Assembly: GCA_031441465.1 (NCBI GenBank)
Contig: JANOEP010000019.1
Span: 1 to 20,125, forward strand
Origin: a bacterium
GTDB taxonomy: Bacteria > Krumholzibacteriota > Krumholzibacteriia > LZORAL124-64-63
DNA: 20,125 bases
Direction: 5' to 3'
Shown here: positions 4,569 through 20,125 of the stretch, piece by piece
Numbering within the stretch: position 1 is the first letter of the stretch
Layout: each line of letters begins with the position of its first letter
The notes under the pieces: generated by a model
What the model saw: only the letters and a program-made list of their open reading frames with translations
Told to the model about the DNA's origin: nothing
Databases searched by the model: none
Translations under genes and position numbers: made by a program

Positions 4569-6031
4569 GCCGTCCCTCCTTCGACGCGGGGACCGGTCGC
4601 CGCTAGCCGGTCGAGCACGGCGGCGGCCATGGTTTCGGACTCCTTGATGCAGGCGTTGACCGACACGCCGCGGTACGAGCTGCCGCCGAGGTGCAGACCC
4701 GGGAGGCCGGCGAGCTGCGCGTCGATCCGGCGCAGGCGGTCGAGGTGGCCGGGCTCGTACTGGGCGATGGCCCGCGGGTGGCGGAACACCTGGACCATCG
4801 CGGGCTCGCCGCGCAGGCCCATCAGGCCGCGCAACTCGGCGACGGCGCGGTCCCGCAGGGCGTCGTCGTCGTCGTCCAGGACGCGCGGGTCGAGTGGGCC
4901 GCCGGCCATGCAGTGCAGCAGGACCCGGCCATCCGGGGCGCGGTCCGGGAAGATGCTGCTGGTCCACAGGGCGCCCAGCAGGCGGCTGCGCTCGCGGGTG
5001 GGGATCAGCAGGCCGAAGCCGTCGAGGTCGTGGGCCACGTCGTCGCGCGCGTAGCCCAGGGCGATCACGGCCATGGGCACGTAGGGGATGCCGTCCAACA
5101 GACCGGACAGCGTGGGGTCGAGGCCGCGCAGGTGGGCGGCGGCCGCGTGGGCCGGCGTGGCGTGGACGACGGCGTCGCAGTTGATGGTCTCATTCCCGGC
5201 GGTCCGCACCCGCCAGGTGTCACCGTCGCGCAGGATCGACGCGACCTCGCTGTCCCCGGCGAGGACCGCGCGGGCGTCGGTGCGCAGAGCTTGCGTCAGG
5301 GCGGCGGGCAGCGCCGCCATGCCGCCGCGGAAGGAGTGCAGGGTGCCGGACGGGCCGGCGTCGGCGGCCTTCTTGCGCTGCTTGGAGATGGCCGCCAGCG
5401 CCCGGAACAGGCTGCCGTGGTCGCGCTCCAGCTCGATCATCCGGGGGAATGCGGCCGCCAGGCTGAGCCGGCGGGCGTCGCCGCCGAAGATGCCCTTGAC
5501 CATCGGGTCGAGCATCAGCTCCGCGAAGTCGCGCCCCAGGCGCCGTCGGCCGAACTCCCAGACCGACTCGTCGGTCGTGGGATCGTCGGCCGCGCGGCCC
5601 AGGTCCCGCCGACGCGGCACGAGGAGTTCGCCCAGGATGCGCAGCTTGGCGCGGAGGGAGAAGAGGTCGCTCTTGAGGAAGGCGGGCGGCGAGGCGGGGA
5701 TCTCCCGCAGGCGGCCGCCGACCACCAGGAAACGGCGCCGGGCCGCATCGCTGCTGCGCACCAGTTCGCCGCCCAGCTCCAACCGGTCGACCAGGCGCAG
5801 GGTCGCCGGCTCGTTGTCCAGGAAGCCGTTGGGCCCCCACTCCAGGCGCCAGCCGTCGCGTGCGAGGGTGCGCAGGTTGCCGCCGAAGTCCGGCGCGGCC
5901 TCCAGGACGTCGACCCGCAGGTCCAGCCCGCGCGCCGTCGCCCCTTCCAGCAGGCGCAGGGCCGTGGCCAGGCCCGACACCCCGCCGCCGACCACGACCG
6001 CGCGTCGCGTGCTCCCGGAGCGCTCAGGCAC
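4565..6031 (-). CDS. hemY: FAD-dependent protoporphyrinogen/coproporphyrinogen oxidase (HemY type)
   Basis: GTG at 6031 with GGAGG upstream. Rossmann motif VVVGGGVSGLATA, E.GPNGF, GIFGGD...LS...AFP, GFGLLIP, SSIFPDRAP, AIAQYEPGH, YRGVSVNACI. Confidence 0.92.
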   Translation of the reverse strand: MPERSGSTRRAVVVGGGVSGLATALRLLEGATARGLDLRVDVLEAAPDFGGNLRTLARDGWRLEWGPNGFLDNEPATLRLVDRLELGGELVRSSDAARRRFLVVGGRLREIPASPPAFLKSDLFSLRAKLRILGELLVPRRRDLGRAADDPTTDESVWEFGRRRLGRDFAELMLDPMVKGIFGGDARRLSLAAAFPRMIELERDHGSLFRALAAISKQRKKAADAGPSGTLHSFRGGMAALPAALTQALRTDARAVLAGDSEVASILRDGDTWRVRTAGNETINCDAVVHATPAHAAAAHLRGLDPTLSGLLDGIPYVPMAVIALGYARDDVAHDLDGFGLLIPTRERSRLLGALWTSSIFPDRAPDGRVLLHCMAGGPLDPRVLDDDDDALRDRAVAELRGLMGLRGEPAMVQVFRHPRAIAQYEPGHLDRLRRIDAQLAGLPGLHLGGSSYRGVSVNACIKESETMAAAVLDRLAATGPRVEGGTA

Positions 6032-7112
6032 GCGTCGCCTCCGCGTGGAAGGGATCGCCGGCCAGGCGCGCCGCCAGCGAAGTGAGCCAGGTCTCGTCGA
6101 GGTTGAGCGCGGCGCCGCGGTCGAACTCCCGCACGCCCAGGCGCTCGGCCTCGCGCCGCAGTTCGAGGTCGAGTTCGTGCAGCGTCTCGATGTGCTCACA
6201 GGTGAAGCTGACCGGCTGCACCAGCAGGTGGCGGCAGCCGGCTTCGGCCAGGCGGCGCGTCTCGGCCGTGATCTCGGGACCGAGCCACTTGATGGGGCCG
6301 ACCTTGCTCTGGAAGGCCAGAAGGGGTGCGGGGCCGCCCGGCAGGCGGGCCAACCAGGCGGCGTGCCCGGCCGCGGCGAAGGCCGACCGCACGCGTTCGT
6401 GGACGGCGCTGACCGTGGCGCGGGTCTGGCTGAGATAGGGGTCGCCGCGTTTCACGAATCTCTCGGGCAGGGAGTGGGCCACGTAGATCAACGCGCAGGC
6501 CTGCGGGTCCACGCCCTCGCCGGCCCAGCGCAGCAGGCCGCGGCCGGCGTTGGCTGCCAGGGTCGCGATGAAGCCGTCGAGCAGGTGCCAAGCCTCGACC
6601 ACGTGGACCGCGGCGCCGGGGGCGAAACGGTCCAGCGACTCCTGTACGAAGGCCAGCGTGCTGCCGTTGGTGGCGTCGGAGTACTGGGGGTACATCGGCA
6701 GGACCAGGAACTGCTCCGCGCCGCGCTCACGCAACCCGCGCACGGCCTCGTCGGGGTAGGGGCGCCAGTAGCGCATGGCCGGCAGCGCGACCGTCGGGCG
6801 GCCGGCTGCGATCAGCAACTCGGCCAGCCGGTCGCCTTGGGCGCGGGTGGTCGGGACCTGCGGCGAGCCGCCGCCGTGGCCCATTTCGAGGTACCGCCGC
6901 CGCACGGCCGGCGCGCGCCGCCGCGCGATCAGGCTGCCCAGGACCGGGGAGAGGAAGCGCGGGATGGGGATGATCTGGGGATCCCGGAACAGGTTGCGCA
7001 GGAAGGGCTCCACGGCGTCGGGCCCGTCGGGACCGCCCATGCCGCAGAGGATCAGGCCCGTGGTCCGGGCCGGGTCGAGGCGGTCCTGCCGAAAGCGACG
7101 CGGTGCGGTCAT
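6024..7112 (-). CDS. hemH: Ferrochelatase
   Basis: ATG 7112 with GAGG upstream. Motifs MGGP, PFLRNLFRDP.II, GGGSP, MRYWRP, LPMYPQYS, AHSLP, GDPY, FQSKVGP.KWLGP, F..EHIETLHELD. Confidence 0.95.
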   Translation of the reverse strand: MTAPRRFRQDRLDPARTTGLILCGMGGPDGPDAVEPFLRNLFRDPQIIPIPRFLSPVLGSLIARRRAPAVRRRYLEMGHGGGSPQVPTTRAQGDRLAELLIAAGRPTVALPAMRYWRPYPDEAVRGLRERGAEQFLVLPMYPQYSDATNGSTLAFVQESLDRFAPGAAVHVVEAWHLLDGFIATLAANAGRGLLRWAGEGVDPQACALIYVAHSLPERFVKRGDPYLSQTRATVSAVHERVRSAFAAAGHAAWLARLPGGPAPLLAFQSKVGPIKWLGPEITAETRRLAEAGCRHLLVQPVSFTCEHIETLHELDLELRREAERLGVREFDRGAALNLDETWLTSLAARLAGDPFHAEATRA

Positions 7113-7119
7113 CCTCGCC

Positions 7120-8496
7120 TCAGATGGTCTTGGAGAACAGGGGCGTCTCGCTCGTGCGGTCCAGGTAGGCGTCGAACTCCATGCACAGGTTGCGCACGAA
7201 GAAGCGCCCCAGCTCGGTGACGCGCACACGGTCGGGCAGGAACTCCACGAACCCCTCATCCTGATAAGGGCGCAGGCGGGCCAGCCCGTCGGCCAGCAGC
7301 GCGTCCGCGGGCGTGCCGAAGCCGGGCTCGGTCAGCGCGTACGGCAGTTCCAGGTTGCACATCAGGTTGAGGATCGCCAGGCGCCGCAGGCGGTCGTCGT
7401 CGCTGAGCCGGTGACCCTTGACGATCGGCAGGCGTCCGGCGTCGATCGCGGTCTGGTAGCCGTCGAGTTCGGCGTCGTTCTGGACGAAGCGGTCGCACAC
7501 GTCGCCGATGCCGCTCATGCCGAAGGCCAGCATGTGGGGCGCCGGCCGCGTCGTGTAGCCCATGAAGTTGCGGTGCAGGCGCCGCTCCCGCAGCGCGACC
7601 GCGAGTTCGTCGTCGCGGCGGGCGAAGTGGTCGATGCCGATCCAGTCGTAGCCGGCCTCGGCGAACAGGTCGATGGCCAGGCGGAACAGCTCGAACTTCT
7701 CGAAGCCGGACGGCATGTTGTCGGTGTTGATGAGCTTCTGCTGGGGCTTGACCCAGGGCACGTGGGCGTAGCTGAAGCAGGCCACGCGGTCGGGCCCCTG
7801 CTCGATGATGTCGTGCAGGGTGCGCTCGAAGGACGTGCGCGTCTGCTCCGGCAGGCCGTAGACGAGGTCGAGGTTGACGCCCTCGTAACCGGCCTCGCGG
7901 CAGGCCCGGTACAGCTCCAGCGTGCGGTCGCGCTTCTGCAGCCGGCCGATGGCCTTCTGCACCGCGGGCTCGAAGTCCTGCACGCCCAGGCTGATGCGGT
8001 TGAAGCCCTGCGCGCGCAGGAAGCGCGCCTGTTCGGGCGTGCCGATGCGCGGGTCGACCTCGATCGAGATCTCGCCCCGCGGGTCGACGGCGAAGGCGGC
8101 GCGCAGCAGGCGCAAGGCGCGCTCGACCTGCGGGTCCTTGAGGAAGTTGGGCGTGCCGCCGCCCCAGTGCAGCTGCACGACGCGCCGGCCGGGGCCCAGC
8201 ACGTCCACCACCGCCGCCAGCTCGCGCTCGACGCGGTCGAGGTAGGCGTCGACCGCGCCCTTCTCGCTGGAGACCACGGCGTTGCAGCCGCAGTAGTGGC
8301 AGTGCTTCGCGCAGAAGGGCAGGTGCAGGTAGACCGACAGCTCGTCGTCGGGACGCGACGAGAGTTCGCGCAGCGCCTCGCGGTAGTCGGTCTCGCCGAA
8401 GTCGCGCGTCCAGGCCGGCACTGTCGGGTAGCTCGTGTACCGCGGTCCCGGCTTGTCGTGCTTCTGGAGCAGTTCGCGCGGCACGTCCAGCGCCAT
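7120..8496 (-). CDS. hemN: Oxygen-independent coproporphyrinogen III oxidase (radical SAM)
   Basis: N-terminal GPRYTSYPT (true HemN rather than HemW), YLHLPFCAKHCHYCGC (CxxxCxxC), HWGGGTP, GFNRISLGVQDF, DLVYGLPEQ, IGIDHFA, RNFMGYTT, FSKTI end. Confidence 0.96.
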   Translation of the reverse strand: MALDVPRELLQKHDKPGPRYTSYPTVPAWTRDFGETDYREALRELSSRPDDELSVYLHLPFCAKHCHYCGCNAVVSSEKGAVDAYLDRVERELAAVVDVLGPGRRVVQLHWGGGTPNFLKDPQVERALRLLRAAFAVDPRGEISIEVDPRIGTPEQARFLRAQGFNRISLGVQDFEPAVQKAIGRLQKRDRTLELYRACREAGYEGVNLDLVYGLPEQTRTSFERTLHDIIEQGPDRVACFSYAHVPWVKPQQKLINTDNMPSGFEKFELFRLAIDLFAEAGYDWIGIDHFARRDDELAVALRERRLHRNFMGYTTRPAPHMLAFGMSGIGDVCDRFVQNDAELDGYQTAIDAGRLPIVKGHRLSDDDRLRRLAILNLMCNLELPYALTEPGFGTPADALLADGLARLRPYQDEGFVEFLPDRVRVTELGRFFVRNLCMEFDAYLDRTSETPLFSKTI

Positions 8497-8497
8497 G

Positions 8498-9535
8498 TCA
8501 GTCCCCCTCGCGGTACGCCTGCACGGTCGCGACCAGGGTCTCGACCGCGGCGATCGGCGCTTCGGGCAGGATGCCGTGCCCGAGGTTGAACACGTGGCCG
8601 GCGGCCTCGCGGCCGGCGCGGCAGATCTCCAGCGCGCGGCGGCGGATCTCCTCGTGGCTGCCGAACAGGCACAGCGGATCGAGGTTGCCCTGGACCGCCT
8701 TGCCGGGATAGGTGCGCGCGGCGACTGCCAGGTCGAGCGTCCAGTCCACGCCGAACGCCTCGGCGTCGAGCGTGCGGACATGGTCGAGGTAGGGGGCGCT
8801 GCCCTTGAGGAAGTAGACCCGGGGCACGCCGGCGTCCTTCAAGCCCGCGAGGATGCGCCGCAGGCCCGGCATGATGATCGCGGCGTAGTCCTGGGGGTGC
8901 AGGATGCCGCCCCAGGTGTCGAAGATCTGGACCGCGTCGACGCCCGCTTCGACCTGCATCAGCAGGTAGTCGGTGATCTGGTCGGCGAGCTTGTCCAGCA
9001 GGCGCGCCAGCAGCGCCGGATCGGAATAGAGCATCGCCTTGAGGTGCCGGTAATCCTTCGAGCCCCCGCCCTCGATCATGTACGCCGCCAACGTGAACGG
9101 CGCGCCGGCGAACCCGATCAGGGGCGTGTGGCCGCCGAGTTCGCGCTTGATCAGGCGCACGGCCTCGGCCACGTAGCCGGTGTGCTCGCGCGAGTCGACG
9201 ACGCAGAGGGCGTCCACGTCGGCGGCCGTGCGGACGGGATCGTGCATCCGCGGGCCGTGGTCGTCGAAGGAGAAGGGGGCGCCCATGGGCTCCAGCGGCA
9301 CCAGGATGTCGCTGAACAGGATGGCCGCGTCGAAGCCGAAGCGACGGATCGGCTGCAGGGTGACCTCGCAGGCCAATTCGGGGGTCTTGCACAGCCCGAT
9401 GAACGAGGTCTTCTCACGCACCGCGCGGTACTCGGGCAGGTAGCGGCCCGCCTGACGCATGATCCAGATGGGCGTGCGCTCGGGAGCCTCGCCCCGCAGG
9501 GCGGCTAGGTAGGGGCTGGTCTGAAGAGAGGCCAT
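8498..9535 (-). CDS. hemE: Uroporphyrinogen decarboxylase
   Basis: PIWIMRQAGRYLPEYR, DAAILFSDIL, LIGFAGAPFTLAAYMIEG, QIFDTW, QGNLDP, HVFNLGHGI; GGAG RBS. Confidence 0.97.
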   Translation of the reverse strand: MASLQTSPYLAALRGEAPERTPIWIMRQAGRYLPEYRAVREKTSFIGLCKTPELACEVTLQPIRRFGFDAAILFSDILVPLEPMGAPFSFDDHGPRMHDPVRTAADVDALCVVDSREHTGYVAEAVRLIKRELGGHTPLIGFAGAPFTLAAYMIEGGGSKDYRHLKAMLYSDPALLARLLDKLADQITDYLLMQVEAGVDAVQIFDTWGGILHPQDYAAIIMPGLRRILAGLKDAGVPRVYFLKGSAPYLDHVRTLDAEAFGVDWTLDLAVAARTYPGKAVQGNLDPLCLFGSHEEIRRRALEICRAGREAAGHVFNLGHGILPEAPIAAVETLVATVQAYREGD

Positions 9536-9767: not shown

Positions 9768-10889
9768 TCAGTGCACTTCGTAGTGCGCGTCGCCGAAGTC
9801 CTTCACATGGCACTTGTTGCACAGCGAACGCTGGTTGGTCACCAGGGTGTAGCCGTAGTCCTTGTTCGCCACGTCATCCGCCGAGGCGCCGGTATCGGTG
9901 ATCAGCGGGTGCGAGCTGATCAGGTGCGTGGACGTGAAGTCCCAGCGGCCGGCGTCCGCGAAGGGCGACGCGTGCGAGCGATGGCAGGTCAGGCACATGA
10001 CCTGGTCCTGGGGCAGGGGGCCCTGGGTGTAGTTCAGGGGGTTGACGGTCTCGAGGTCGACGTTGACGACTTCGAAGGGCACCAGGCCGCGGTACGAGGT
10101 GGCGGGGTCGCCGCCGGTGGTCTGGTCGGTGGTGATGTAGGCGTTGTAGGTCGCCGCCACCAGGCTGCCCATGTCCTCGCCGGTCGCGTGCACGAAGTCC
10201 GAGGTGTTGCCCGAGTGGAGGTCCGTGTGGCAGTTGGCGCACCACTCGCTCATGCCCGACTTGTAGACGGTGTGCGAGAGGTCGGTCTCGGGCACGCCCG
10301 AGGGGCTGTTGCCCAGCGTGCGGCGGCTGTTGCCGACGGCCAGCGGAGCGGGGCTGTCGAAGCCGTAGCGGGCGCCGCCGTAGATGGGGCCGGTGCCCTC
10401 GTCGCCGTACAGCAGGCGGTAGTTCTCGTTGCCGTGGGGATCGTGGCAGCTGGTGCAGGTCAGGTACTGGCTGTCGAAGTCGCCGCCGGGGGCCGCGGCC
10501 AGCATGGGATCCCGGACGATGCCGTAGGCCGGCGAAACGACGTTATGGCCGTGCGTGTAGCCCTGCCGGGAGCCGGCGCGGGGGAGGGTCCACGAGAAGG
10601 TCTTGGTGAGCCAGTAGAAGTCGCCACCGGCGCCCCAGCCGAAGCCGCCGGCGAACTGGCCGTAGGCCGCGTGGCACTTCAGGCAGGTGTCGCTGGCGTT
10701 GCCGTTGTTCAGCAGGTAGGCGTTGCCCGCGGGATGATTGACATCCACGGGGTTGCCGTTCTGGCTGTTGTGCATCGTGTGGCAGCCGGCGCAGTAGGCC
10801 ACGCCGCCGTCGTGGAACGCCAGGGCGGCGCCGCTGCTCAGGGCGAGAGCCAGGACGATGGTTGCGGTGATCAACAGTTTGTTCTTCAC
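9768..10889 (-). CDS. omcS: OmcS-family hexaheme outer-surface cytochrome c (candidate nanowire subunit)
   Basis: GTG start with GGAGG RBS; 24-aa Sec signal ending ALA; six CxxCH motifs (CAGCH, CLKCH, CTSCH, CANCH, CLTCH, CNKCH). The blocks FHDGGVAYCAGCHTMHNS, GGDFYWLTKTFSW, GHNVV, APGG, CHDPHG, YRLL, GMSEWCANCHTDLH, PFE, CHRSHAS and QRSLCNKCHVKD are colinear with Geobacter OmcS as I recall it. Confidence 0.9.
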   Translation of the reverse strand: MKNKLLITATIVLALALSSGAALAFHDGGVAYCAGCHTMHNSQNGNPVDVNHPAGNAYLLNNGNASDTCLKCHAAYGQFAGGFGWGAGGDFYWLTKTFSWTLPRAGSRQGYTHGHNVVSPAYGIVRDPMLAAAPGGDFDSQYLTCTSCHDPHGNENYRLLYGDEGTGPIYGGARYGFDSPAPLAVGNSRRTLGNSPSGVPETDLSHTVYKSGMSEWCANCHTDLHSGNTSDFVHATGEDMGSLVAATYNAYITTDQTTGGDPATSYRGLVPFEVVNVDLETVNPLNYTQGPLPQDQVMCLTCHRSHASPFADAGRWDFTSTHLISSHPLITDTGASADDVANKDYGYTLVTNQRSLCNKCHVKDFGDAHYEVH

Positions 10890-11067
10890 AGAATCGCCTC
10901 CGAGTTGTGCCGGCGGGCGAAGCCGCCGATGGGGTTTGACGCTGGCGACCGGGTCGCCGTGGCCGAGCGTGAGGCCGGCCGCTCTTCATCCGACGAGAAC
11001 CAGAACCACTGCCGAAAATCGAGACGTGCGAACAATCCTTGCGGCCCCGCGCGGGCGGAGCCTCCTG

Positions 11068-11991
11068 CTACTCTCCTGCTTCCGTGCCGAAGATCCCGAA
11101 CGTCTGGACGCGCCCTTCGTAGCCCTGGGCCACGAACACGCGCCCGGACGTCGCGGCGATGGCGAGGGGGTGGTAGAGCTGCCCCGGCGCACCGCCGAAC
11201 GAACCGAACTCTGACGAGAAGTTGTGGTCACGGTCGTAGACCAGGACCGTGTGCCGCATGCGGTCCAGGACCAGGACCTCGCCCGCGGGCCCGAAGGCGA
11301 TGCCGACCGGGAAGGCGAGGCGGCCCGGGCTGGTGCCGGGGCGGCCGAAGGAACCGGCGTCCGCACCGTCCGCCGTGCGGATCAGCACCAGGTGCAACTC
11401 GCCGCCGGGGATGTAGAGGCGGCCGTCGGGCGCTTCGGCGGGACGGCCGAGTTCCGACTGCTCGCTGACGCCCTCGAGGGCGCGGTGCCAGAGCACGCGG
11501 CCCGTCGCGGCGTCGTGCTTGGTGAGCGTGCCGGCGTATTTGTCGAGTGAGACGTAATTGCCGTCGGCGGTGACGATCAGGTGGTCCGGCTGCCACTGCG
11601 GCGCGGGCCGCTCGACGTCGAAGCGCACCGGCTCGCCGCGCAGGTCGAGCTTGCGCAGGGTGCGCGCGCCGTCGGCGTCACGGTCCGCGAAGACGAAGCC
11701 GCCGTCGAGCTCGAGGCTGCCGTCGACGGGGGTCGAGAGGGCGGCCGCGATGCTGCTGGTGAACAGGGTGATCCCGTTCCCGTCGACGACGTGGAATTTC
11801 ACGCCCCGCTCGTCGGTGACGCACACGTCGCCGGTCGCGGGATCGAGGCTCAGGGCGACGGGACGAACCTGGCCGGCCGCACCCATATCGATCTGCAGCG
11901 TGCTTTCATAGCGAAAAGCGATCGTTCCCTTTGCCGCGAGCGGGCAAACGGTCAGCAGGGCGGCGATGCAGATTGCGCGGCTGCTTGTCAC
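11068..11991 (-). CDS. Secreted NHL-repeat beta-propeller protein
   Basis: Repeats such as FGRPGTSPGRLAFPVGIAFGPAGEVLVLD and FGSFGGAPGQLYHPLAIAATSGRVFVAQ. A signal-peptide-like N-terminus follows GTG 11991; the alternative start is ATG 12066. Confidence 0.85.
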   Translation of the reverse strand: MTSSRAICIAALLTVCPLAAKGTIAFRYESTLQIDMGAAGQVRPVALSLDPATGDVCVTDERGVKFHVVDGNGITLFTSSIAAALSTPVDGSLELDGGFVFADRDADGARTLRKLDLRGEPVRFDVERPAPQWQPDHLIVTADGNYVSLDKYAGTLTKHDAATGRVLWHRALEGVSEQSELGRPAEAPDGRLYIPGGELHLVLIRTADGADAGSFGRPGTSPGRLAFPVGIAFGPAGEVLVLDRMRHTVLVYDRDHNFSSEFGSFGGAPGQLYHPLAIAATSGRVFVAQGYEGRVQTFGIFGTEAGE

Positions 11992-12092
11992 GGGGGTGTC
12001 ACCGAATCTGTTGGTGTATTCACAGCGAAGTTGTTTCGAAGTCACTCGCGACGCTGTTGTTGTCATTCATTGTGAGCTCTTGTCACGGAGAT

Positions 12093-12122
12093 ATCATAGC
12101 GCTTCTGTTACTATTCCGTCAA
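12093..12122 (-). promoter_or_regulatory. Sigma70-type promoter for the NHL-omcS unit
   Basis: Minus strand TTGACG (12122-12117), 18-bp spacer, TATGAT (12098-12093); each hexamer matches consensus at 5/6, with an AT-rich tract upstream. Confidence 0.6.
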
Positions 12123-12206
12123 ATGCATTTTGAAGTAAACGCTCTCATATTGCGAAAAATCTTTATTTTTGACAATAGTCGCCAATATCCACTATTTCGG
12201 TCGTGT

Positions 12207-12240
12207 AAAGCAGACCGGCCCCCTGATGGGAGCCGGCCTG
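12207..12240 (-). terminator. Probable terminator hairpin after the 42-heme cytochrome gene
   Basis: Minus strand CAGGCCGGCTCCC-ATCA-GGGGGCCGGTCTG-CTTT forms a 13-bp stem whose two mismatches are G-U pairs only on the minus strand. The U-tract is short. Confidence 0.6.
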
Positions 12241-12280
12241 TTAAAATACGCACTAGTTTGGCGAGATCAATTCACAGCCA

Positions 12281-15200
12281 TCAGCGCTTCTGGCGGATCT
12301 TTTCGGTATGGCATCCGATGCACAGCTTCCCGCCGGCGTCCTCCCGGAGCACCTTCTCGAACTCCGACCCATGGGGATCGTGGCAGCTCGCGCAGACAAT
12401 CTCGCCGCCACGGACCGGGTCGGTCGTCCCGGCGCCCAGCGGGTGGTCGGTGTGCTCCTGCCAGGAGTGGCAACGCAGGCACGGGTCGGGACCGGCGGGG
12501 ACCGCACCGGCCGCCGCCGGGCTGAGGTGGGGGTTGTGGCACATCGTGCACTGACGGCCCTCGGGATCGGGGTGACGGTGGCTGGAGGACTTCATCCGCG
12601 CCGCCTGCTCGGCGTGACAGCGGCCGCAGACGGCGGCTTGGCTGCGCGGCAGCAGATCGGGCACCGGAGAGGCGTGGGGCGTGTGGCACTCCAGGCAAGC
12701 CCGCTCTCCCGAGAGGGGCGCGTGGAGGGTCGCACCCTTGAGTTCCTCGGCCAGGCCGGGATGGCAGGACAGGCAGAGGCGTTGCTCCGCACCCGCCTGC
12801 ACCTTGCCGCTCGCGTCGTGGCAGGCCTTGCAGTCCCGCTTGGCGTACGGCGGATGGACGTGGCCGTGTGTCAGGCCCGCCTGCGTGGAGGCGTGCGGGT
12901 CGTGGCAGGCCATGCAATCGGCCGACTCGAGGTCGAAGCCCAGGTGCGGCCGGGTCAGCGCCGAACTCTTCAGGTCGTGGCAGGTTGCGCAGAGGGCGGG
13001 CACCTCCCTGGTCAGGAGGTTCGCCTGAGTCGTGCCGTGCGCGTCGTGGCAGGTGGCGCAACTCCCGTCGGCGAACGGCATGTGTTGCCGGGGAAGCGAC
13101 CGCGCCTCCTGCAGGTCCTGGTGGCAGGCCCAACAAGATTTCGCCCGTTCGGTGCGCAGCAGCGCGGGCTGGTCCGACCCGTGCGGGTCGTGGCACGCGG
13201 AGCATTCGCCGTCGCGAGCCGGCCGGTGGGCCAGATCCGCCCGCGGGAACAGGTCGCTGCTCTCGTGGCACGCGGCGCAGGCGGCGCCGACGCCGCCGGC
13301 TTTCAGCAGGTGATCGCCGCGGGCTGCGTGGGCGTCGTGGCAGGCGCTGCAGTCGCCGGCGTCGAAGGGGGCGTGAGGGTGCCGGCGCGCTTCCGTGAGC
13401 CCGTCGTGGCAGCCGGCGCACAGCGCCTTCTGGTCGGCGATGGGTGCGGGGCCATCGTGGCAGGACGCGCAGTCGCGGTCGTCGAAGGGCGGGTGCGAAT
13501 TCGGCCGGATCAGCGCTGTCTGTGTGGAGTGGTGCGGCGCGTGGCAGCCCGTGCAGTCCAGCCCGGCGAGTTCACGCCCGAGGTGGGCGCTCTTCAGGGC
13601 GACGTCGCTCTCGTCGTGGCAACGGAAGCAGAGTTCGGCGGCCGGCGCCGTCAGCAACGCCGGCTGTGCGCCGCCGTGGGGCAGATGGCATGTCGTGCAG
13701 TCGTCCATGATCGGCGGATGGACCGACTTCGCCGCCGCGACGTCGACGACGTCCTCGTGGCAGACGGTGCAGAGCAGCGGCTCCGGCGCGGCCAGCAGAT
13801 CGGCACGGTCCGCGCGGTGGGCGTCGTGGCACGCGGTGCAGTTGCCGGCGGCGACCGGCGCGTGCGCGTGGCCGACGGCGCCCTGGCCTGTGTCGTGGCA
13901 GTCCAGGCAGATCGCCGTCGCCGGTCGTCGCAGCATGGCGGCCTCGTCGCCGCCGTGGGGCCGATGGCAATCCCCGCAGAGGCCGTCTGCGACGGGCGGG
14001 TGCAGGCTGCCCCCCTCGGGTTTGACCGCCTGATCGGCGTGGCAAGCCAGGCAGGTTGCCGCGGGCGAGGCCTTCAGCAGGGAAGGCTGGTCGGCGCGGT
14101 GCGGCGTGTGGCAGGCGAGGCAGTCGCCGCGCGCGGCCACATCGTGGGGGTGGGAGGTGACGAGTTCGACCTTGACCTTGAGGTGGCATCCGAGGCAGAG
14201 GGTCCCCGCCTTGGCGGTCAACAGTCCCGGCTCGGTCGAGCTGTGCGGGTCATGGCAGGCGGAGCAGTCCCGCTTGACGAAGGGCGCGTGGTCCGAGACG
14301 GCGGCGACGGACACGTCGCCGACTTCCTGGTGGCAACCCAGGCACAGCTCGCCGGGAGGCGCGGTCAGCAACGCGGCCCGCGCGCCGCCGTGGGCGTCGT
14401 GGCAGGCGTTGCATTCGCCGCCGGCGACCGGCGCATGCACCAGGTTCTTGCGGAACGGTGCGTCGTCGTGGCATTCGAAGCAGAGCCGGCGCAGCTCGGT
14501 CTTGATCATCCCGGCGTGTGAGCTGCCGTGGGCGGCGTGGCAGTCCAGGCAGGAGCCGTCGGCGACGGGTGCGTGAGGCGTCGCGGCGCCGACGCCGGGC
14601 TGGTCGTGGCAGGACAGGCACAGGTCGTTGCCCTGGGCGACCAGCGCGGTGACGCCCCCGGCGTCCTGCACGTGGCAGGCGGCGCAGTCGCGGTCCTTGA
14701 CGGGCGCGTGCTGCACGGCCAACAGGAGCTTCGGCGCGTCGGCGCTGTGGGGATCGTGGCAGGACGTGCAGCCGGTGATCGCGGCCGCGTCGCCGTGCGC
14801 CTGTGCGAGCTTGCGGGCGTCGCGGTGGCAGGACAGGCAGAGCGCGTCGACCGTCGTGTCGAGCAGGTGCGCTTCGGCGCTGCCGTGGGGCCGGTGGCAG
14901 GCGGCGCACCCCTCCTTCTTCAACGGGGCGTGGACGAACGCACGCGTGAAGGCGGCGCCGTCGTGGCAGGTCAGGCAGGCCGCGCCGCCCTTCGCCGGCA
15001 ACAGGCCGGGCTGGCCGCTGCCGTGGGGGTCGTGGCAGGCGATGCAGCCGCCGTCGCGCACCGGCGCGTGGACGTGCGCCAGCTCGGATTCGGCGATCTG
15101 GGGCGCGTGGCAGCCCGCGCACAGCTCGATGCCCGACTCCTTCAGGGCCAGCCGCCCCACGACGCCGTGGGGCTCGTGGCAGGCTTCGCACTCCGCCTTG

Positions 15201-15382
15201 GCGAAGGGGGCGTGCGCGTGGGGGGCGCCGACGGCCTTCTTCTGGTCGGCGTGGCAGTCCAGGCAGGTCTTGGTGCGGAAGGGTCCCGCCGCCAGGGCGG
15301 CCCCGGGGAACAGGATCGCCGTCAGCAGGGACGCCAGCAGCAGGACCGGAACGAGTCCGGCGGACACAGCACGCTTACTCAT
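12281..15382 (-). CDS. Giant multiheme cytochrome c, 42 CxxCH motifs (paired-CXXCH repeat family)
   Basis: 1033 aa with a Sec signal ending ALA. Hand count gives 42 CxxCH motifs in a repeating H-x-P...CxxCHxxH...LL...CxxCH unit. No lipobox or C-terminal membrane anchor. Start overlaps the upstream stop, with GGAG RBS. Confidence 0.95.
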   Translation of the reverse strand: MSKRAVSAGLVPVLLLASLLTAILFPGAALAAGPFRTKTCLDCHADQKKAVGAPHAHAPFAKAECEACHEPHGVVGRLALKESGIELCAGCHAPQIAESELAHVHAPVRDGGCIACHDPHGSGQPGLLPAKGGAACLTCHDGAAFTRAFVHAPLKKEGCAACHRPHGSAEAHLLDTTVDALCLSCHRDARKLAQAHGDAAAITGCTSCHDPHSADAPKLLLAVQHAPVKDRDCAACHVQDAGGVTALVAQGNDLCLSCHDQPGVGAATPHAPVADGSCLDCHAAHGSSHAGMIKTELRRLCFECHDDAPFRKNLVHAPVAGGECNACHDAHGGARAALLTAPPGELCLGCHQEVGDVSVAAVSDHAPFVKRDCSACHDPHSSTEPGLLTAKAGTLCLGCHLKVKVELVTSHPHDVAARGDCLACHTPHRADQPSLLKASPAATCLACHADQAVKPEGGSLHPPVADGLCGDCHRPHGGDEAAMLRRPATAICLDCHDTGQGAVGHAHAPVAAGNCTACHDAHRADRADLLAAPEPLLCTVCHEDVVDVAAAKSVHPPIMDDCTTCHLPHGGAQPALLTAPAAELCFRCHDESDVALKSAHLGRELAGLDCTGCHAPHHSTQTALIRPNSHPPFDDRDCASCHDGPAPIADQKALCAGCHDGLTEARRHPHAPFDAGDCSACHDAHAARGDHLLKAGGVGAACAACHESSDLFPRADLAHRPARDGECSACHDPHGSDQPALLRTERAKSCWACHQDLQEARSLPRQHMPFADGSCATCHDAHGTTQANLLTREVPALCATCHDLKSSALTRPHLGFDLESADCMACHDPHASTQAGLTHGHVHPPYAKRDCKACHDASGKVQAGAEQRLCLSCHPGLAEELKGATLHAPLSGERACLECHTPHASPVPDLLPRSQAAVCGRCHAEQAARMKSSSHRHPDPEGRQCTMCHNPHLSPAAAGAVPAGPDPCLRCHSWQEHTDHPLGAGTTDPVRGGEIVCASCHDPHGSEFEKVLREDAGGKLCIGCHTEKIRQKR

Positions 15383-16691
15383 GGCTCTCCTTCGCGGTCT
15401 GCTGCGCCAGCCGTTCGCGGATGACGGCTTCGGCGCCGGGGACGATCCTGACGGTCGTGGCGGCCTCGAGGCGGGCGATCGCGTTGGCGATGTTCTCCCG
15501 CGTGCGTTGGGCCCTCATCCGCAGCAGCAGGTCTTCGCGGCAGTCCGCGAGCGGCCGCGGCGTGGGTTGCTCGACCTCGGTCACGACGGCGACCACCCAG
15601 CCGCCGGGCACTTCGTAGGGATCCAGGATCTGGCCGGCCCGGGCCTCGCCCGGCTTCAGGCCGAGCATCTCCGGCTGGAGCCAGGTCGTGGGCAGGGCGG
15701 CGGCGTCCTGGCGGACCTCGGCCGTGCGCTTAGCCAGCCAGGTCATCTCGGCGCCCTGGTCCAGGCGCTTCTTAAAGGTGTCCGCGGCTTCCTTTTTCTC
15801 AAGCAGCACGCTCTGCACTTTCAGGCGGGTCGGCGGCGTCAGGTGCGACAGGTTCGCTTTGTAGAACGCGGCGATCTCGGCCTCGGTCGGCGTGAAGCGG
15901 AATCTGCCCAGGGAGTTGACCATCTCCTCGAGCACGAGGTCCCGTTCCTGCTGGGCCGCGAGGCGTTTGACCGCGCTCCGCTTGGGGTAGCCGAGCCGCC
16001 CGGACTCGTAGCCGAGCAGGGCCTCGCTGAACCACTTCTGGAAAAACTCGTCGCGGATCTGCGGGGCGTCGGGTTTGTTGGCGAGCCCGTGGAAGTGCTC
16101 GAAGCGCATGTTGCTGGTGAGCGCGCTGACGCGCAGGGCGCCCGACGGCAGTTTCGCGAGCACCGCGTCGCTCTCCTTCAGCTGCTTCTTCACCGCGGGG
16201 TCGGTCGACGCGTAGTCGAGGGAGGCGAGCAGCGTCTCGTCCACCCGGATGCCGTATTTCGACTTCAGGTCTTCGAGGTAGGCGGCGATGGCCTCTTCGC
16301 GGGCCTGCGCCGGGTCGGCGATGACCAGCGGCGCGGTGCCGGCGATCGAGTCCAGCAGGGCGATGATGCTGCGCGAGCGGATGGTCTCGCGCACCTGGGC
16401 CGCGATCATGTCCTTGCGGTGAAGGCCCGTGCGGTACCCCTCCTGGATGATCAACTCGTTCTGGACCAGGCGCCGCAGCACGGCCGCGGGCTCGGGCATC
16501 TGCTGCTCCTGGCTCTTGTTCATCTGCAGCGTGACGAAGAGTTCCATGTCGAGGTCGGCGACGGAGATCGTGTCGCGACCCACGAACGCGAGGGGGGTGT
16601 TCTCTGACGGGACCGCGGCCACGGTCGCGCTCGCGACCAGGAGCGCGACGACGGTGAGCGCGAGGCGGGCGTGGGAACGGGCGAATTTCAT
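15375..16691 (-). CDS. SurA/PrsA-like periplasmic chaperone with parvulin (PpiC)-type domain
   Basis: Signal peptide; LAFVGRDTISVADL and VLRRLVQNELIIQEG (SurA-N-like); PTEAEIAAFYKAN; VQSVLLEKKEAA...RLDQGAEMTWLAK; LKPGE...PYEVPGGWVV. Confidence 0.8.
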   Translation of the reverse strand: MKFARSHARLALTVVALLVASATVAAVPSENTPLAFVGRDTISVADLDMELFVTLQMNKSQEQQMPEPAAVLRRLVQNELIIQEGYRTGLHRKDMIAAQVRETIRSRSIIALLDSIAGTAPLVIADPAQAREEAIAAYLEDLKSKYGIRVDETLLASLDYASTDPAVKKQLKESDAVLAKLPSGALRVSALTSNMRFEHFHGLANKPDAPQIRDEFFQKWFSEALLGYESGRLGYPKRSAVKRLAAQQERDLVLEEMVNSLGRFRFTPTEAEIAAFYKANLSHLTPPTRLKVQSVLLEKKEAADTFKKRLDQGAEMTWLAKRTAEVRQDAAALPTTWLQPEMLGLKPGEARAGQILDPYEVPGGWVVAVVTEVEQPTPRPLADCREDLLLRMRAQRTRENIANAIARLEAATTVRIVPGAEAVIRERLAQQTAKESHE

Positions 16692-16692
16692 G

Positions 16693-17766
16693 TCAACGTA
16701 CCTTCCCCGGCTGCCGGGATTCCTCCCACAGCCTGTGCATGGACGCGGCGAGCAACCGCCGCGGCGAACTCGATCCCGTGTTGCCGAACCAGCCCCGCAC
16801 GGGGCGGTTGTCCTGATCGATGTCGAAAGCGGCGGCCACCAACCCCGTGCGGGTGTCGACCGTGCGCAGGTGCAGCGAGAACGAGGACAGCGTCTCCCAG
16901 GGAACCGCGGACGCCGACGCGCCTTCTTCGGCCGCGGACGGGGCGGCCTGGTCCGGTTCGCGGGTGATCATTTCCAGCACGATCGCCTCGGGCGCGCCGA
17001 ACGTCTCGGCCAGGAGCGCCAGCCCGGATCGATCGAGCCGGCGCGGGTCGGCGCCTCCGGCCACCAGGGCGCCGCCCAGCACGGCCGGGTCCAGGACCGC
17101 GCACGCCGAGTCGGCCAGCGCGGCTTCGAGCAGGCACTGGGTCGCGATCTGGGCGGTCGCGGCGTCGAACCCCAGGGGATGGACCGCCAGCGGCGCGAGG
17201 GGCGCCCCCGACCGCGGCCGGTTCGTCGCGGCGAGCGTGGCGACGAGCCGGCGGCAGGCGATCGCGAAGTCGATCCGCCAGGCGGCGCCGCCCAGGGCGC
17301 ACGCTTCGGTGGCCGCCGACCCGATCAGGCCGGTGCCGGCGTCGAGGGTGCGGCCGGCCAGTTCGATGCGGTCGCGCCCGAGGTACAGGTGGACGAGCAG
17401 CAGGCGGTCCGCGCCCGCGCTGTCGAGATCGGCGAGGAAGGCCGGCGGGAGGAGCCGGCCGTCGCGGATCCGCCGGTGGCGCTGCAGGGCCAGCGACGAC
17501 GCGGCCGGCAGGGGCGCGCCGCCGTGGCGCGCGAGCGCGCCGGTCAGCTCCTGTTCGCCGAGCGCGCGCAGGTCGGCCAGGTCCGTCACGCCGCTGCCGT
17601 TGCCGGCGCCGGCCATGAACAGCAGGATGCAGGTGCGGCCGGTCGGGTCGGGTGCGGCGCGCTGCGCGGCGGCGGGGGTCGCACCCAGCAGGGACGACAG
17701 CAGCGCCAGGACCGCCGCGGCGTGCCTGAAGTGGGCGACCATGGGGCTGCCGGACGTCGCTCGCAT
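16693..17766 (-). CDS. Exported protein with two CsgG/TolB-N-like alpha/beta domains
   Basis: ATG 17766 overlaps the upstream stop (TGATG); alternative ATG 17742. Signal peptide ending AAA. Two copies of the strand motif (IELAGRTLDAGTGLI and FSLHLRTVDTRTGLV), each preceded by a GAD/GAP helix-strand element. Confidence 0.65.
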   Translation of the reverse strand: MRATSGSPMVAHFRHAAAVLALLSSLLGATPAAAQRAAPDPTGRTCILLFMAGAGNGSGVTDLADLRALGEQELTGALARHGGAPLPAASSLALQRHRRIRDGRLLPPAFLADLDSAGADRLLLVHLYLGRDRIELAGRTLDAGTGLIGSAATEACALGGAAWRIDFAIACRRLVATLAATNRPRSGAPLAPLAVHPLGFDAATAQIATQCLLEAALADSACAVLDPAVLGGALVAGGADPRRLDRSGLALLAETFGAPEAIVLEMITREPDQAAPSAAEEGASASAVPWETLSSFSLHLRTVDTRTGLVAAAFDIDQDNRPVRGWFGNTGSSSPRRLLAASMHRLWEESRQPGKVR

Positions 17767-18335
17767 CAGAACAGGGACTCCAGCGCGTCGCGCACCGCCC
17801 GGCGCGACACCTCGTGTTGGCTCGCCGAGTCGCCGCCGAAGAGCTTGCGCCAGAACGACGAGCCGTCGCGCGAGACCTGGGCGTTCCAGACCATGGTGCC
17901 GGTCTCGGTCTCCAGCATGGAGAACGACGCGGTCAGCGCGCAGGTCTGATCGCCGCCGCTGCGCCGCTGCCCGTAGTCCTCCACCGTGCCGGTGAAGATC
18001 GCCTGGGCGCCGAGCGCCTCGCCGAGCGTGACGACCTGTTCCGGCGTCAGGGGCGTGTCGGACCCCAGGCCGAGCCGGTTGCAGGCCGCCAGCGTCGCGC
18101 CCGGGTCGACGATGTCCAGCGCCTCGGTCTGCAGCAGTTCGGCCAGGAACACCGGCTGCAGCCGCGCCGCCGCGAAGCGGTCGGCGCTGAGATTGTGGAA
18201 CGGGACCACCGCGCAGCTCTTGACGAAGCTGAGATCCACGTCGGGATGGATGAAGTGCGTGGTCTGGGGCGCGCACCCGGCCAGCAGGGCCAGCCCGAGC
18301 GCGAGCGCGATCCGGATTTCCCGTCGATATGCCAT
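17766..18335 (-). CDS. CsgG/PelC/DUF799-like lipoprotein
   Basis: ATG 18335 with GGAGA RBS (alternative 18353); lipobox LAGC; AVVPFHNLS, LGEALGAQAIFTGTVEDY, MLETETGTMVW and amphipathic FWRKLFG. Confidence 0.8.
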   Translation of the reverse strand: MAYRREIRIALALGLALLAGCAPQTTHFIHPDVDLSFVKSCAVVPFHNLSADRFAAARLQPVFLAELLQTEALDIVDPGATLAACNRLGLGSDTPLTPEQVVTLGEALGAQAIFTGTVEDYGQRRSGGDQTCALTASFSMLETETGTMVWNAQVSRDGSSFWRKLFGGDSASQHEVSRRAVRDALESLF

Positions 18336-18373: not shown

Positions 18374-20125
18374 TCAGAAGCTCCAGTGGACCCTGAAGCT
18401 GGTGTTGAAGGGCGAGTTCCGTTCGCCGTCGCGTTCGTATTCCTGGACCTCGAGTCCGCCTTCGAGCGTGAGGCGGGGGCGCGCGCGGCAGACCGCCTGC
18501 ACGGAGGCACCCTGCTGGTGGGTGTCGGTGCGCGTGTCGTGCTGGTCGCTGAGCGAGAACTGCAGGCTGACGCTGCCGCCGGGCAGCGGGGTCCAGGTCA
18601 GGTAGTGGCGCAGCATCCAGTCGTCCCTGAGGCGCTGCTCGTAGCGGGCGAGACTGTTCAGCGACAGCAGGGGCCGGATCTGCCAGCCGAGGTCGAGTTG
18701 CGTGTCGTTGAAGGGCGTGAATCCCGCGCCCGCGACCGTGCTCACCCAGCGGTTGACGCGGCGCAGGTTCAGGCTGAGTTGCGGCTTCGGGGCGCAGGTG
18801 ACGGTCGTGGAGACGGTCCATGACCGGGAGTCCTGGGTCGAAGCGTAGTCGTCGAGGCGCGCGTGGCTGACTTGCTGTTGCAGGCGGAACGCCGGGGCCG
18901 GCTGCCAGGCGACGTCCAGCGACACGTTTTCGGTGACCTTGTCGAGGTCGCGGCTGTGATCCACCAGGCGCGACCAGCCCAGCCGGCTCCAGAGGCGCTC
19001 GCGCTCGCGGCGGGTCAGCGAGAGGGTGGTGCCCGTCACGTCGGTGCTGCTGCGCGACGGGCTCTCCAGCTTGTCGACGTGGTAGGAACCGCTGGCCGTC
19101 CACAGGCCGCGGCGCCAGGTCGCGCCCAGGCGGTGGTCGGCGCCGCTGAGATCGCGCGCCGCATCGTCGAAGCGGCGCTCTTCGAAGCTGGCGTCGTAAG
19201 TCAGCGTGAGATCGCGGCGCGCGTCGTATTCCAGGTTGCCGATCAGCTGGTACCGCGAGACATCGCTCTCGGACGTCGCGCTGGATCCTGGCCCCTCGAT
19301 CTCGAGTTCGGTCAGGGCGATCACCGCTTCGGTGGGGCCGGTCTTGATGTCGACCAGCTTCAGGCGGCGCGCGGCGATCCCCGACGGGAACTCGATGAGC
19401 CAGCCCTGACGCCCGTTGCCCCAGTCCTGGTAGGCGGCGCGCGCGGCGCCGGGCGCCAACTCGGTCCAGGCGACGCCCTCGGGGTCGTCGTTGACGAAGA
19501 CGCGCCACTGCAGGAAAGCGGGGAAGCGCACGATGTCCGCGATGTAGAGAACGGCCTGGGTCATCTCCGTCGTCTCGCCGAAGTCCACCACGAGGTTGCG
19601 GTAGTCGCCGCCGTACTCGCGCACGACGGCCTGTTCGTCGCCGAGGTCCAGGCCCGCCGGCTGGTCGCGGTCCAGGTCGGCCAGGGCCGGCAGCGGCGTC
19701 GGTGCGGGTTCGAGGGGGTCGAGGCTCTCGGGAGTCCCATCCAAGACGTAGCCGATGGACAGCGGCACCAGCAGCGAGCGCCGGTCGCCGCCGAGATCGA
19801 TGGTCTGGTGCAGGAATCGGCTGCGGGCTTCCAGAGCGTAGCGGACCCGGTTGCCGTCCAGACGGCCCGACTTCCGGTACTGCGAGCTGTGACTGGTGAA
19901 GAGCCGCTTGGTGCCGCTGCTCACCGATCTCGTGTCGCTGCGGGTAAAACCGTAGCGCAGATCCCCGTAGCGTTGCCAAGAACGCTGGATGCCGGCGCTC
20001 AGCATCCGGTCGCGGTTCTCGGTTTCCGTCGGGGGCGTTTCGCGCCGCCAGGAGGCGGTGTCGCTGTAGCGCAGGTACCAGTCCCCCCAAGCGGGTACGC
20101 CGCGCACATTGGCGCCCCAGTCCAG
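18374..20125 (-). CDS. Outer-membrane beta-barrel protein with an inserted discoidin/F5-8-type-like domain, 5' end beyond the window
   Basis: The frame is open to the window edge (LDWGANVRGVPAW...). Many alternating amphipathic strands rich in W/Y/S/T/R. The C-terminus FRVHWSF ends in an aromatic residue like a BAM beta-signal. Confidence 0.78.
   Translation of the reverse strand: MDWGANVRGVPAWGDWYLRYSDTASWRRETPPTETENRDRMLSAGIQRSWQRYGDLRYGFTRSDTRSVSSGTKRLFTSHSSQYRKSGRLDGNRVRYALEARSRFLHQTIDLGGDRRSLLVPLSIGYVLDGTPESLDPLEPAPTPLPALADLDRDQPAGLDLGDEQAVVREYGGDYRNLVVDFGETTEMTQAVLYIADIVRFPAFLQWRVFVNDDPEGVAWTELAPGAARAAYQDWGNGRQGWLIEFPSGIAARRLKLVDIKTGPTEAVIALTELEIEGPGSSATSESDVSRYQLIGNLEYDARRDLTLTYDASFEERRFDDAARDLSGADHRLGATWRRGLWTASGSYHVDKLESPSRSSTDVTGTTLSLTRRERERLWSRLGWSRLVDHSRDLDKVTENVSLDVAWQPAPAFRLQQQVSHARLDDYASTQDSRSWTVSTTVTCAPKPQLSLNLRRVNRWVSTVAGAGFTPFNDTQLDLGWQIRPLLSLNSLARYEQRLRDDWMLRHYLTWTPLPGGSVSLQFSLSDQHDTRTDTHQQGASVQAVCRARPRLTLEGGLEVQEYERDGERNSPFNTSFRVHWSF

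Follow-up and report, generated by a model that had tools for sequence, protein, structure and literature searches.

Filaments of the OmcS type are proposed to carry electrons over micrometres outside cells, while how electrons cross the periplasm to reach these filaments is unsettled. Two cytochromes of Geobacter are known from the gene cluster of OmcS: GSU2495 (oscI) and GSU2494 (oscJ) are listed as periplasmic members of the omcS-companion (osc) operon. For other products of this operon, roles in making OmcS nanowires are proposed, namely folding for OscH, secretion for OscE/F/G and shaping for OscD (PMC13194489, citing Shen et al. 2025). GSU2495 carries 26 heme-binding motifs (PMC2996986; bioRxiv 10.1101/2025.11.06.686851) and has been equated with Gbem_1124 (PMC2996986). 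The same operon is conserved in the syntrophic SEEP-SRB1 partners of anaerobic methanotrophic (ANME) archaea, where its core comprises a six-bladed propeller, 16-heme and 26-heme cytochromes and a peptidyl-prolyl isomerase (PPIase), all described with signal peptides and without transmembrane helices (Skennerton et al. 2017, PMC5539420). We describe a counterpart of this pair in a 20,125-nt stretch of DNA (the window), which is the entire contig JANOEP010000019.1, one of 74 contigs of a 3.49-Mb Krumholzibacteriota genome (GCA_031441465.1). The window contains a single gene for a 42-heme cytochrome that, judged by its sequence, is very probably the fused form of the adjacent 26-heme and 16-heme pair OscI (GSU2495) and OscJ (GSU2494). 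This relationship to a published pair was missed in the first-pass annotation, which was made from the letters of the window alone. The fused protein is not a new kind of protein, as its 26 + 16 counterpart and the surrounding cluster have been published; a literature search that covered few subscription journals found no published mention of a single-chain 42-heme cytochrome or of the constancy of 42.

A single-chain 42-heme cytochrome and its two-chain counterparts

The product of the open reading frame (ORF) at 12281–15382 is a c-type cytochrome that is exported through Sec, has no anchor and, with its 42 hemes, amounts to about 130 kDa; it is composed only of MtrA-type doubled-CxxCH units. 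The ORF runs on the minus strand from an ATG at 15382 through 1033 uninterrupted codons to a stop at 12281–12283; a plus-strand reading of the same interval was ruled out because its frame is interrupted by a stop. All 84 cysteines lie inside the 42 CxxCH motifs, which are spaced 17–29 residues apart (mostly 23–25) and accompanied by 54 further histidines, whereas 2000 shuffles of the same residues gave a mean of 0.63 motifs and a maximum of 4. Pfam reads the entire chain as 21 Paired_CXXCH_1 stretches (E 3e-215, 696 bits), concordant with 21 stretches of TIGR01905 in NCBIfam (E 8.3e-202), and the protein is thus assigned to the doubled-CxxCH domain of approximately 41 residues (PF09699 / TIGR01905). 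The frame has a GC content at third codon positions (GC3) of 0.90, and the window as a whole contains about 70% GC. At the N-terminus, basic residues precede a hydrophobic core and an ALA|AG site, with no cysteine before residue 40, which looks like a type I Sec signal; the AlphaFold2 (AF2) model described below places a helix at residues 10–24, followed by low predicted local distance difference test (pLDDT) values at 25–33. No membrane anchor was found in the protein, the highest 19-residue hydropathy after residue 35 being 1.05. If the signal is removed behind residue 32, a mature chain of 1001 residues, or 23.8 per heme, is left, with a mass of about 104 kDa as apoprotein and about 130 kDa with hemes. 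The first-pass annotation had reported 42 motifs at these coordinates, about 1000 mature residues with about 24 per heme, hardly any non-heme domain, a Sec signal and no anchor; these readings agree with the present analysis, which adds that the strand is minus.

The same annotation had named misassembly of the repeat region as one of the outcomes that would undo its reading. Collapse or expansion of repeats, which would make the gene an assembly artefact or pseudogene, has to be considered for a highly repetitive protein encoded in a draft genome, on a 20-kb contig whose end cuts the gene cluster. At the DNA level, however, repeats inside the gene are only 60–78% alike over 42–111 nt and reach 88–96% only in motif cores of 24–25 nt, and Tandem Repeats Finder returned nothing relevant, only one 20-nt trifle. 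In each of two metagenome runs from freshwater sediment (X1 and X2), Logan contigs cover positions 11000–17000, 6 kb around the gene, unbroken and with 0 differences and 0 gaps; the runs are possibly the source samples, which would make them a second assembler rather than a second organism, and not fully independent. Short joints seen in this comparison have sides of 20–28 letters that come from other contigs with similar motifs, and were rejected as signs of rearrangement. When the protein is aligned with 84 homologues of equal motif number (42), none of the 126 motif cysteines and histidines varies, and the high GC3 likewise speaks against an artefact or pseudogene. Misassembly is unlikely because the contig sets of two runs reproduce the gene without a difference, and we consider an artefact or pseudogene extremely improbable.

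A search of a protein collection returned 778 matches, and the counts given here refer to the best 120 of these plus the query. Exactly 42 CxxCH motifs are present in 85 of the 121 proteins and exactly 26 in another 24, the remaining 12 having 29–41 or 52. Identities to the query are 31–38%, and lengths are nonetheless grouped at about 1050–1070 residues. Motif spacing is position-specific and common to the family; hemes 8, 25 and 34, for example, are each followed by a 28-residue gap across its members. The stand-alone 26-heme proteins reproduce the spacing of hemes 1–26 motif by motif, including the 28-residue gaps, and their chain stops there. The protein with 52 motifs (P0052) is 1629 aa long and is an exception to the count of 42.

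Related loci were then compared in reference genomes, using the best 80 of 181 relatives. Two adjacent ORFs with 26 and 16 motifs are found at 57 loci and a single ORF with 42 motifs at 11, while seven loci are truncated by a contig or locus end and five deviate. The total is therefore exactly 42 hemes at 68 of the 73 complete loci (57 split and 11 fused), and the two ORFs of the split loci correspond to residues 1–642 and 643–1033 of the window protein. One-chain and two-chain forms do not differ in their sum of 42 hemes or in the position-specific way in which the motifs are spaced. The deviating loci are L006 (45 motifs in one ORF, L006:9953-13354), L030 (31 + 10, in overlapping frames), L039 (26 + 11), L063 (26 only) and L077 (25 + 16). 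One contig of an Anaeromyxobacter-labelled metagenome-assembled genome (MAG) carries a fused 42-heme gene and upstream cytochrome ORFs with 29 and 16 motifs (L065:2-7410 and 10001-13291), and the upstream ORFs may represent a second, differently organized copy.

The closest relatives among the 80 loci belong to Candidatus Krumholzibacteriia MAGs (52–53% identity), one of which, L002, has the gene order of the window. Homology extends to the 26 + 16 pairs of Geomonas, Geotalea and Citrifermentans, with 33–37% identity to Geobacteraceae homologues. The family is further found in Gemmatimonadota, Acidobacteriota, Nitrospirota, Myxococcota, Thermodesulfobacteriota, Zixibacteria-labelled and other MAGs, in addition to Krumholzibacteria; because it spans many phyla, well beyond Geobacter, the machinery may matter for electron flow in sediment and soil.

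The window protein resembles OscI and OscJ in its doubled-CxxCH blocks, in the position-specific spacing of hemes 1–26 and 27–42, and in having a signal peptide and no transmembrane helix. Its gene also has the corresponding neighbors: a PPIase directly upstream, a β-propeller, an OmcS-like hexaheme cytochrome and, as putative counterparts of OscF and OscE, a small lipoprotein and a large barrel. Three features that mark membership of the osc group are present: the 26 + 16 spacing, the adjoining PPIase, and an OmcS-type hexaheme cytochrome and β-propeller in the cluster. It differs from the pair in being one polypeptide instead of two, with the second signal peptide gone and hemes 26 and 27 separated by 17 residues. 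The gene order is also permuted relative to the osc cluster, the propeller and OmcS genes lying downstream of the cytochrome gene, as in the Krumholzibacteria locus L002.

Fusion junctions, predicted heme ligation and predicted structure

Split 26-heme proteins end 3–12 residues (median 5) past motif 26, and the 16-heme ORF has a hydrophobic signal core of its own at 53 of the 57 split loci, with a conserved (F/Y)(K/R)LKPGAxGK stretch between this core and the first motif. The 17-residue junction between hemes 26 and 27 of the window protein retains no remnant of a signal peptide, and in its fused clade the junctions are 17–26 residues long and lack the LKPGA-type motif. Three other fusions (L010, L012 and L055), nested among split forms, keep the LKPGAxGK-type mature N-terminal motif of the 16-heme protein, with spacings of 23–29 residues that equal ordinary inter-heme distances; their sequences identify them as in-frame joins from which nothing but the second signal peptide is missing. 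A tree of the 26-heme part computed by maximum likelihood (69 rows, 653 columns, LG+G4, unrooted, with support from the Shimodaira–Hasegawa-like approximate likelihood-ratio test only) places nine fused rows on one side of a branch with a support of 100: the window, Krumholzibacteria, three Gemmatimonadota, three Acidobacteriota and one Anaeromyxobacter-labelled MAG. On the opposite side are 60 rows, made up of 57 split loci and the three nested fusions. At least four changes between the fused and split states are required on this tree, and none of 500 label shuffles gave an equally low number; as the tree is unrooted, it does not assign the ancestral state.

The AF2 model has pLDDT values of 77–90 across the junction (residues 630–660). 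Because the fusion joins give ordinary inter-heme spacings and the model is confident across this stretch, hemes 26 and 27 are predicted to be neighbors in one continuous chain. By extension, separate OscI and OscJ may dock head to tail, with heme 26 of OscI against heme 1 of OscJ, and the fused form would imply that the 26-heme and 16-heme proteins operate in this manner as one 42-heme unit. It also offers a single gene for structural and biophysical work.

Comparison of inter-motif segments revealed that those before hemes 9, 26 and 35 match one another best (0.27–0.34); the same holds for the segments preceding hemes 8, 25 and 34. Combined with the spacing pattern, this similarity marks three homologous irregular junctions (hemes 8–10, 25–27 and 34–36) that divide the sequence into four modules: hemes 1–9, 10–26, 27–35 and 36–42. 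The break between OscI and OscJ coincides exactly with the second of these junctions.

The alignment of 85 proteins contains exactly 42 columns outside the motifs in which at least 50% of rows have histidine. Thirty-eight of these are invariant and the other four are conserved at 99, 91, 82 and 69%; in the 91% column the window protein has threonine, with a histidine one residue away. Apart from the start codon, the only methionine column at or above 50% reaches 53%, and the window protein has leucine there. The first-pass estimate of roughly one spare histidine per heme thus becomes 42 conserved columns for 42 hemes, a pattern consistent with bis-His ligation of every heme, as described for MtrA (PMC7198977).

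The 85-row alignment was used to build an AF2 model of the full-length protein, with a mean pLDDT of 84.4 and a predicted template modelling score (pTM) of 0.55, so that its local geometry is predicted with confidence and its long-range arrangement is not. Foldseek returned one significant match in the PDB, MtrA (6r2q_A, E 1.3e-5), which is also matched at the sequence level (E 3.5e-17). VIA-align superposes residues 295–531 of the model, all within the second module, on 224 of 265 MtrA residues with Z 12.8, a root-mean-square deviation of 3.8 Å and 28% identity, the next match having Z 4.2. The MtrA/DmsE-type paired repeat recognized by the first-pass annotation is therefore borne out, with doubled-CxxCH units, a bis-His pattern and little secondary structure shared with MtrA (PDB 6R2Q chain A); the 42 hemes, in contrast to ten, and the three irregular three-heme junctions set the window protein apart. 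MtrA holds ten bis-His hemes in an 80 Å chain (PMC7198977), and extrapolation at 8 nm per ten hemes would give a length of about 33 nm for 42 hemes if the chain were straight, which is an assumption. The rod of about 30 nm or more suggested by the first-pass annotation is hypothetical, given the low pTM and three conserved irregular junctions that could be kinks, and the contacts it would make with inner-membrane donors or the base of the filament are conjectural. The PDB sequence table labels 6r2q_A “Cystathionine beta-synthase”, while the fold library gives it as the Mtr complex; the name in the table is apparently misassigned.

Membership of other large cytochrome families was considered and rejected. 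Assignment to the MtrA/DmsE decahemes (TIGR03508) would rest on a score of 437.9, which exceeds the cut-off and is accumulated from nine partial stretches, for a protein with 42 hemes in 1033 residues compared with ten in about 300, so that the resemblance to MtrA is local only. Polymeric c7 nanowire cytochromes such as GSU1996 consist of c7 modules with three hemes each, one of them His-Met ligated. They are likewise a single chain of many domains with minimal peptide, a heme wire in a Geobacter-type organism. The window protein instead shows a two-heme period, scores 143 bits for Cytochrome_C7 (PF14522) against 696 for Paired_CXXCH_1, and has no conserved methionine column beyond the one at 53%. 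The 16-heme HmcA of sulfate reducers is likewise a large periplasmic multiheme cytochrome, but the corresponding model NF045713 gives 52.7 bits against a cut-off of 400 and Foldseek gives E ≥2 for HmcA structures; the 16-heme partner in SEEP-SRB1 is also described as unrelated to hmcA (Skennerton et al., PMC5539420).

Gene neighborhood

The 42-heme gene sits in a rearranged osc-type cluster (Table 1). The minus strand encodes every gene of the window, and transcription would pass in turn through the barrel, LpoB-like lipoprotein, CsgG-like protein, PPIase, 42-heme gene, NHL propeller, OmcS homologue and hem genes. The OmcS, barrel and CsgG-like neighbors named by the first-pass annotation are indeed present in the cluster, the CsgG-like assignment being a lead only.

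Table 1. Coordinates of features in the 20,125-nt window
Feature	Position	Strand	Remarks
42-heme c-type cytochrome gene	12281..15382	minus	1033 aa + stop; 21 Paired_CXXCH_1 domains; very probably a fused OscI-OscJ homologue
Sec-type signal peptide	15287..15382	minus	residues 1–32: MSKR, hydrophobic core, ALA/AG cleavage; no lipobox; read from sequence
OscI-equivalent part	13457..15286	minus	hemes 1–26, residues 33–642; repeat modules hemes 1–9 and 10–26; spacing fingerprint of stand-alone 26-heme proteins
OscJ-equivalent part	12284..13456	minus	hemes 27–42, residues 643–1033; modules hemes 27–35 and 36–42
Large outer-membrane β-barrel	18374..20125	minus	OscE position; 5′ end lost at contig end; inserted β-sandwich; ends ...RVHWSF
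LpoB/GNA1162-like lipoprotein	17766..18335	minus	OscF position; 189 aa; LAGC lipobox; Pfam LpoB 1.1e-5
357-aa exported protein	16693..17766	minus	OscG position; no Pfam family; CsgG-like by language-model features
PpiC-type peptidyl-prolyl isomerase (SurA-like)	15375..16691	minus	OscH position; Pfam Rotamase_2 3.4e-12
NHL-repeat β-propeller	11068..12066	minus	propeller of the conserved core set; Pfam NHL 3.4e-9
OmcS-like hexaheme cytochrome	9768..10889	minus	373 aa; 6 CxxCH; phmmer against 6ef8_A E 2.9e-42
hemE	8498-9535	minus	
hemN-like	7120-8781	minus	
hemH	6024-7259	minus	
Protoporphyrinogen-oxidase-like gene	4565-6199	minus	
hemA	within 2368-4497	minus	longest ORF 709 aa; GlutR_N match from residue 275

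Searches with the window proteins (phmmer) detected the PPIase and the lipoprotein at 65 of the 80 loci each, the OmcS-like protein at 60 and the NHL protein at 55. A PPIase ORF directly upstream abuts the start of the cytochrome ORF at 58 of the 77 loci that have enough upstream DNA. In the window the PPIase stop overlaps the 42-heme ATG by 8 nt and an AAGGAG lies 7 nt upstream of that ATG, which together suggest that the two genes are translationally coupled. The hexaheme neighbor aligns to mature residues 1–407 of OmcS (6ef8) and keeps FH.GGVA.C.GCHTMH at its N-terminus; its sequence marks it as a true OmcS homologue.

The genes for the barrel, the LpoB-like lipoprotein and the CsgG-like product follow one another in the order expected of OscE/F/G and are candidate counterparts of these by position. 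As phmmer queries, the window barrel and the CsgG-like protein detected homologues at only 1 and 2 of the 80 loci, respectively, whereas a two-round profile found barrel homologues at 58. The 583-residue barrel fragment is predicted by AF2 (pLDDT 84.3) to form about 23 long strands and an inserted β-sandwich, and the full barrel is likely larger because its homologues have about 730–750 aa. MtrB (6r2q_B), a barrel of 26 strands that sheathes MtrA (PMC7198977), is its first Foldseek match (E 4.3e-8); TonB-dependent receptors, ushers, SlpA and LptD follow close behind, with template modelling (TM) scores of about 0.3. Since MtrB is barely ahead of these, the model supports assignment as a large barrel and no closer class. 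A complex prediction with the barrel of L002 (residues 50–729) and the last 318 residues of the 42-heme protein from that locus, which covers one end and one partner, gave no answer, the score being 0.00 in both runs. The β-sandwich insert of the window barrel (fragment residues ~140–280) has no Pfam match and a family consensus with conserved NRFEIxF, TRYxKVV and VTELQxF. For the 357-aa protein, the CsgG lead comes from the ESM Atlas, which places it beside CsgG clusters with a score of 0.95.

An Rfam search of the whole window at E up to 0.1 gave no match, and hence revealed no riboswitch (GEMM, for example) ahead of the cytochrome genes. A terminator and promoter scan was little informative and returned one promoter-like site upstream of the NHL gene. 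This σ70-like site (12093–12122, minus strand) falls between the 42-heme and NHL genes, which are 214 nt apart, and consists of TTGACG, 18 nt and TATGAT (10/12); the region has two such sites where 0.4 were expected. A look-up of RNA data sets that contain the 42-heme gene listed none. Five heme-biosynthesis genes (window 2368–9535) lie 3′ of the OmcS-like gene in the same direction, which is suggestive for a cluster that requires 48 hemes per protein pair. As part of the conserved system they were rejected, since only one of the 80 loci, L006, has hemA nearby, directly upstream of its 45-heme gene. The first ~270 codons of the hemA ORF are probably not hemA, and the true start or another small gene may lie near 3700.

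Proposed role and alternatives

Taking the fusion and its neighborhood together, the best overall explanation is a fused OscI-OscJ acting as a periplasmic conduit at the OmcS machinery, and we hold it to be narrowly probable; its specific function as a periplasmic wire to that machinery is put forward tentatively, as a serious candidate. In the proposed mechanism, the coupled PPIase would act as foldase of the 42-heme cytochrome, which contains 7.6% proline, with prolines flanking the distal histidines in HxP and xPH ligand motifs. All 42 hemes would be bis-His ligated in one continuous chain, and the holoprotein would reside in the periplasm as a long conduit of several segments (9 + 17 + 9 + 7 hemes). 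Electrons could there be carried and buffered, in either direction, between inner-membrane or soluble periplasmic carriers and outer-membrane machinery of the OscE/F/G type at the base of an OmcS-type filament.

Several points weigh against such a conduit. The periplasmic localization of the 42-heme protein is one that we infer from its sequence, the three conserved irregular junctions may bend or branch the chain, and with a pTM of only 0.55 the model does not fix its overall shape. The Geobacteraceae comparison covered relatives from Geomonas, Geotalea and Citrifermentans. In the literature consulted, no experiment was found that assigns a function to OscI or OscJ. Proteomics and transcriptomics of four cultured species are reported to show no expression of the 26/16-heme cytochromes during metal respiration (PMC5539420), which argues against a routine part in metal reduction and outward electron transfer, and transcription of gsu2495 was low, along with that of omcS, under Pd(II) reduction (bioRxiv 10.1101/319194). 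The same gene was upregulated in the biofilm of a gsu1771 mutant, in a study that describes it as a periplasmic cytochrome, with induction on Fe(III) oxide in an omcB-deficient strain (10.1101/2023.02.27.530372).

One alternative is inward electron uptake, in which the wire would serve direct interspecies electron transfer or cathodic uptake and not metal reduction; this is a variant of the conduit and not exclusive with it. Retention of the operon in the SEEP-SRB1 partners of ANME and the lack of expression in metal respiration point in that direction, and Skennerton et al. themselves raise electron acceptance as an alternative role (PMC5539420). The sequence gives no direction of flow, however, and the family is shared by Geomonas, Anaeromyxobacter, Nitrospira-labelled, Acidobacteriota and Gemmatimonadota genomes of varied lifestyles, so that we consider dedicated uptake improbable. 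A location further out, as an outer-membrane or extracellular conduit, would have one end of the protein inside the OscE-type barrel, in the manner of MtrA in MtrB, or the whole protein exported to the surface via the barrel or the CsgG-like channel. The MtrA-like fold of the cytochrome, the neighboring barrel with its ~23 strands even without its N-terminus and MtrB as top match, and the CsgG-like lead would all suit this arrangement. MtrB is nevertheless not set apart from TonB-dependent receptors, ushers, SlpA and LptD at these TM values, and OscI/J are annotated as periplasmic in a paper that attributes the channel to OmcS secretion, citing Shen et al. 2025 (PMC13194489); an outer-membrane position is accordingly rated as quite unlikely.

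Returning to the periplasmic conduit, the constancy of the heme count would receive a physical meaning if 42 were a molecular ruler. The periplasm is 20–30 nm wide. The protein could then be a fixed wire of about 30 nm, with four rigid segments (9, 17, 9 and 7 hemes) matched to this width whether fused or as 26 + 16, and would supply the missing hard-wired link from inner-membrane quinol oxidation to the base of the OmcS-type nanowire, replacing small, diffusing periplasmic cytochromes. This idea is speculative and we rate it as unlikely; the strictly conserved heme count is a testable length constraint. The protein might alternatively be a periplasmic electron store, a soluble capacitor that takes up as many as 42 electrons and buffers intermittent acceptors without bridging membranes. 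The lack of an anchor and of any recognizable docking domain, the very high heme density of 23.8 residues per heme and a genome rich in multiheme cytochromes are what such a sink would lead one to expect, but it leaves unexplained both the exact count and spacing fingerprint kept across phyla in fused and split forms and the tight linkage to the OmcS, barrel and PPIase genes. A store without a bridging role therefore seems doubtful to us.

The genome contains 24 high-GC3 ORFs with at least three CxxCH motifs, including ORFs with 28 and 19 motifs. Also among its multiheme ORFs are a second 6-heme ORF of 372 aa, which matches Paired_CXXCH_1 and is possibly an OmcS paralogue, and a 10-heme protein of 315 aa, the size of MtrA/DmsE. 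Multiheme ORFs lie at G000:C11:111943-113058 (+), C22:33650-36460 (-), C16:178109-180985 (+) and C66:84131-85075 (+).

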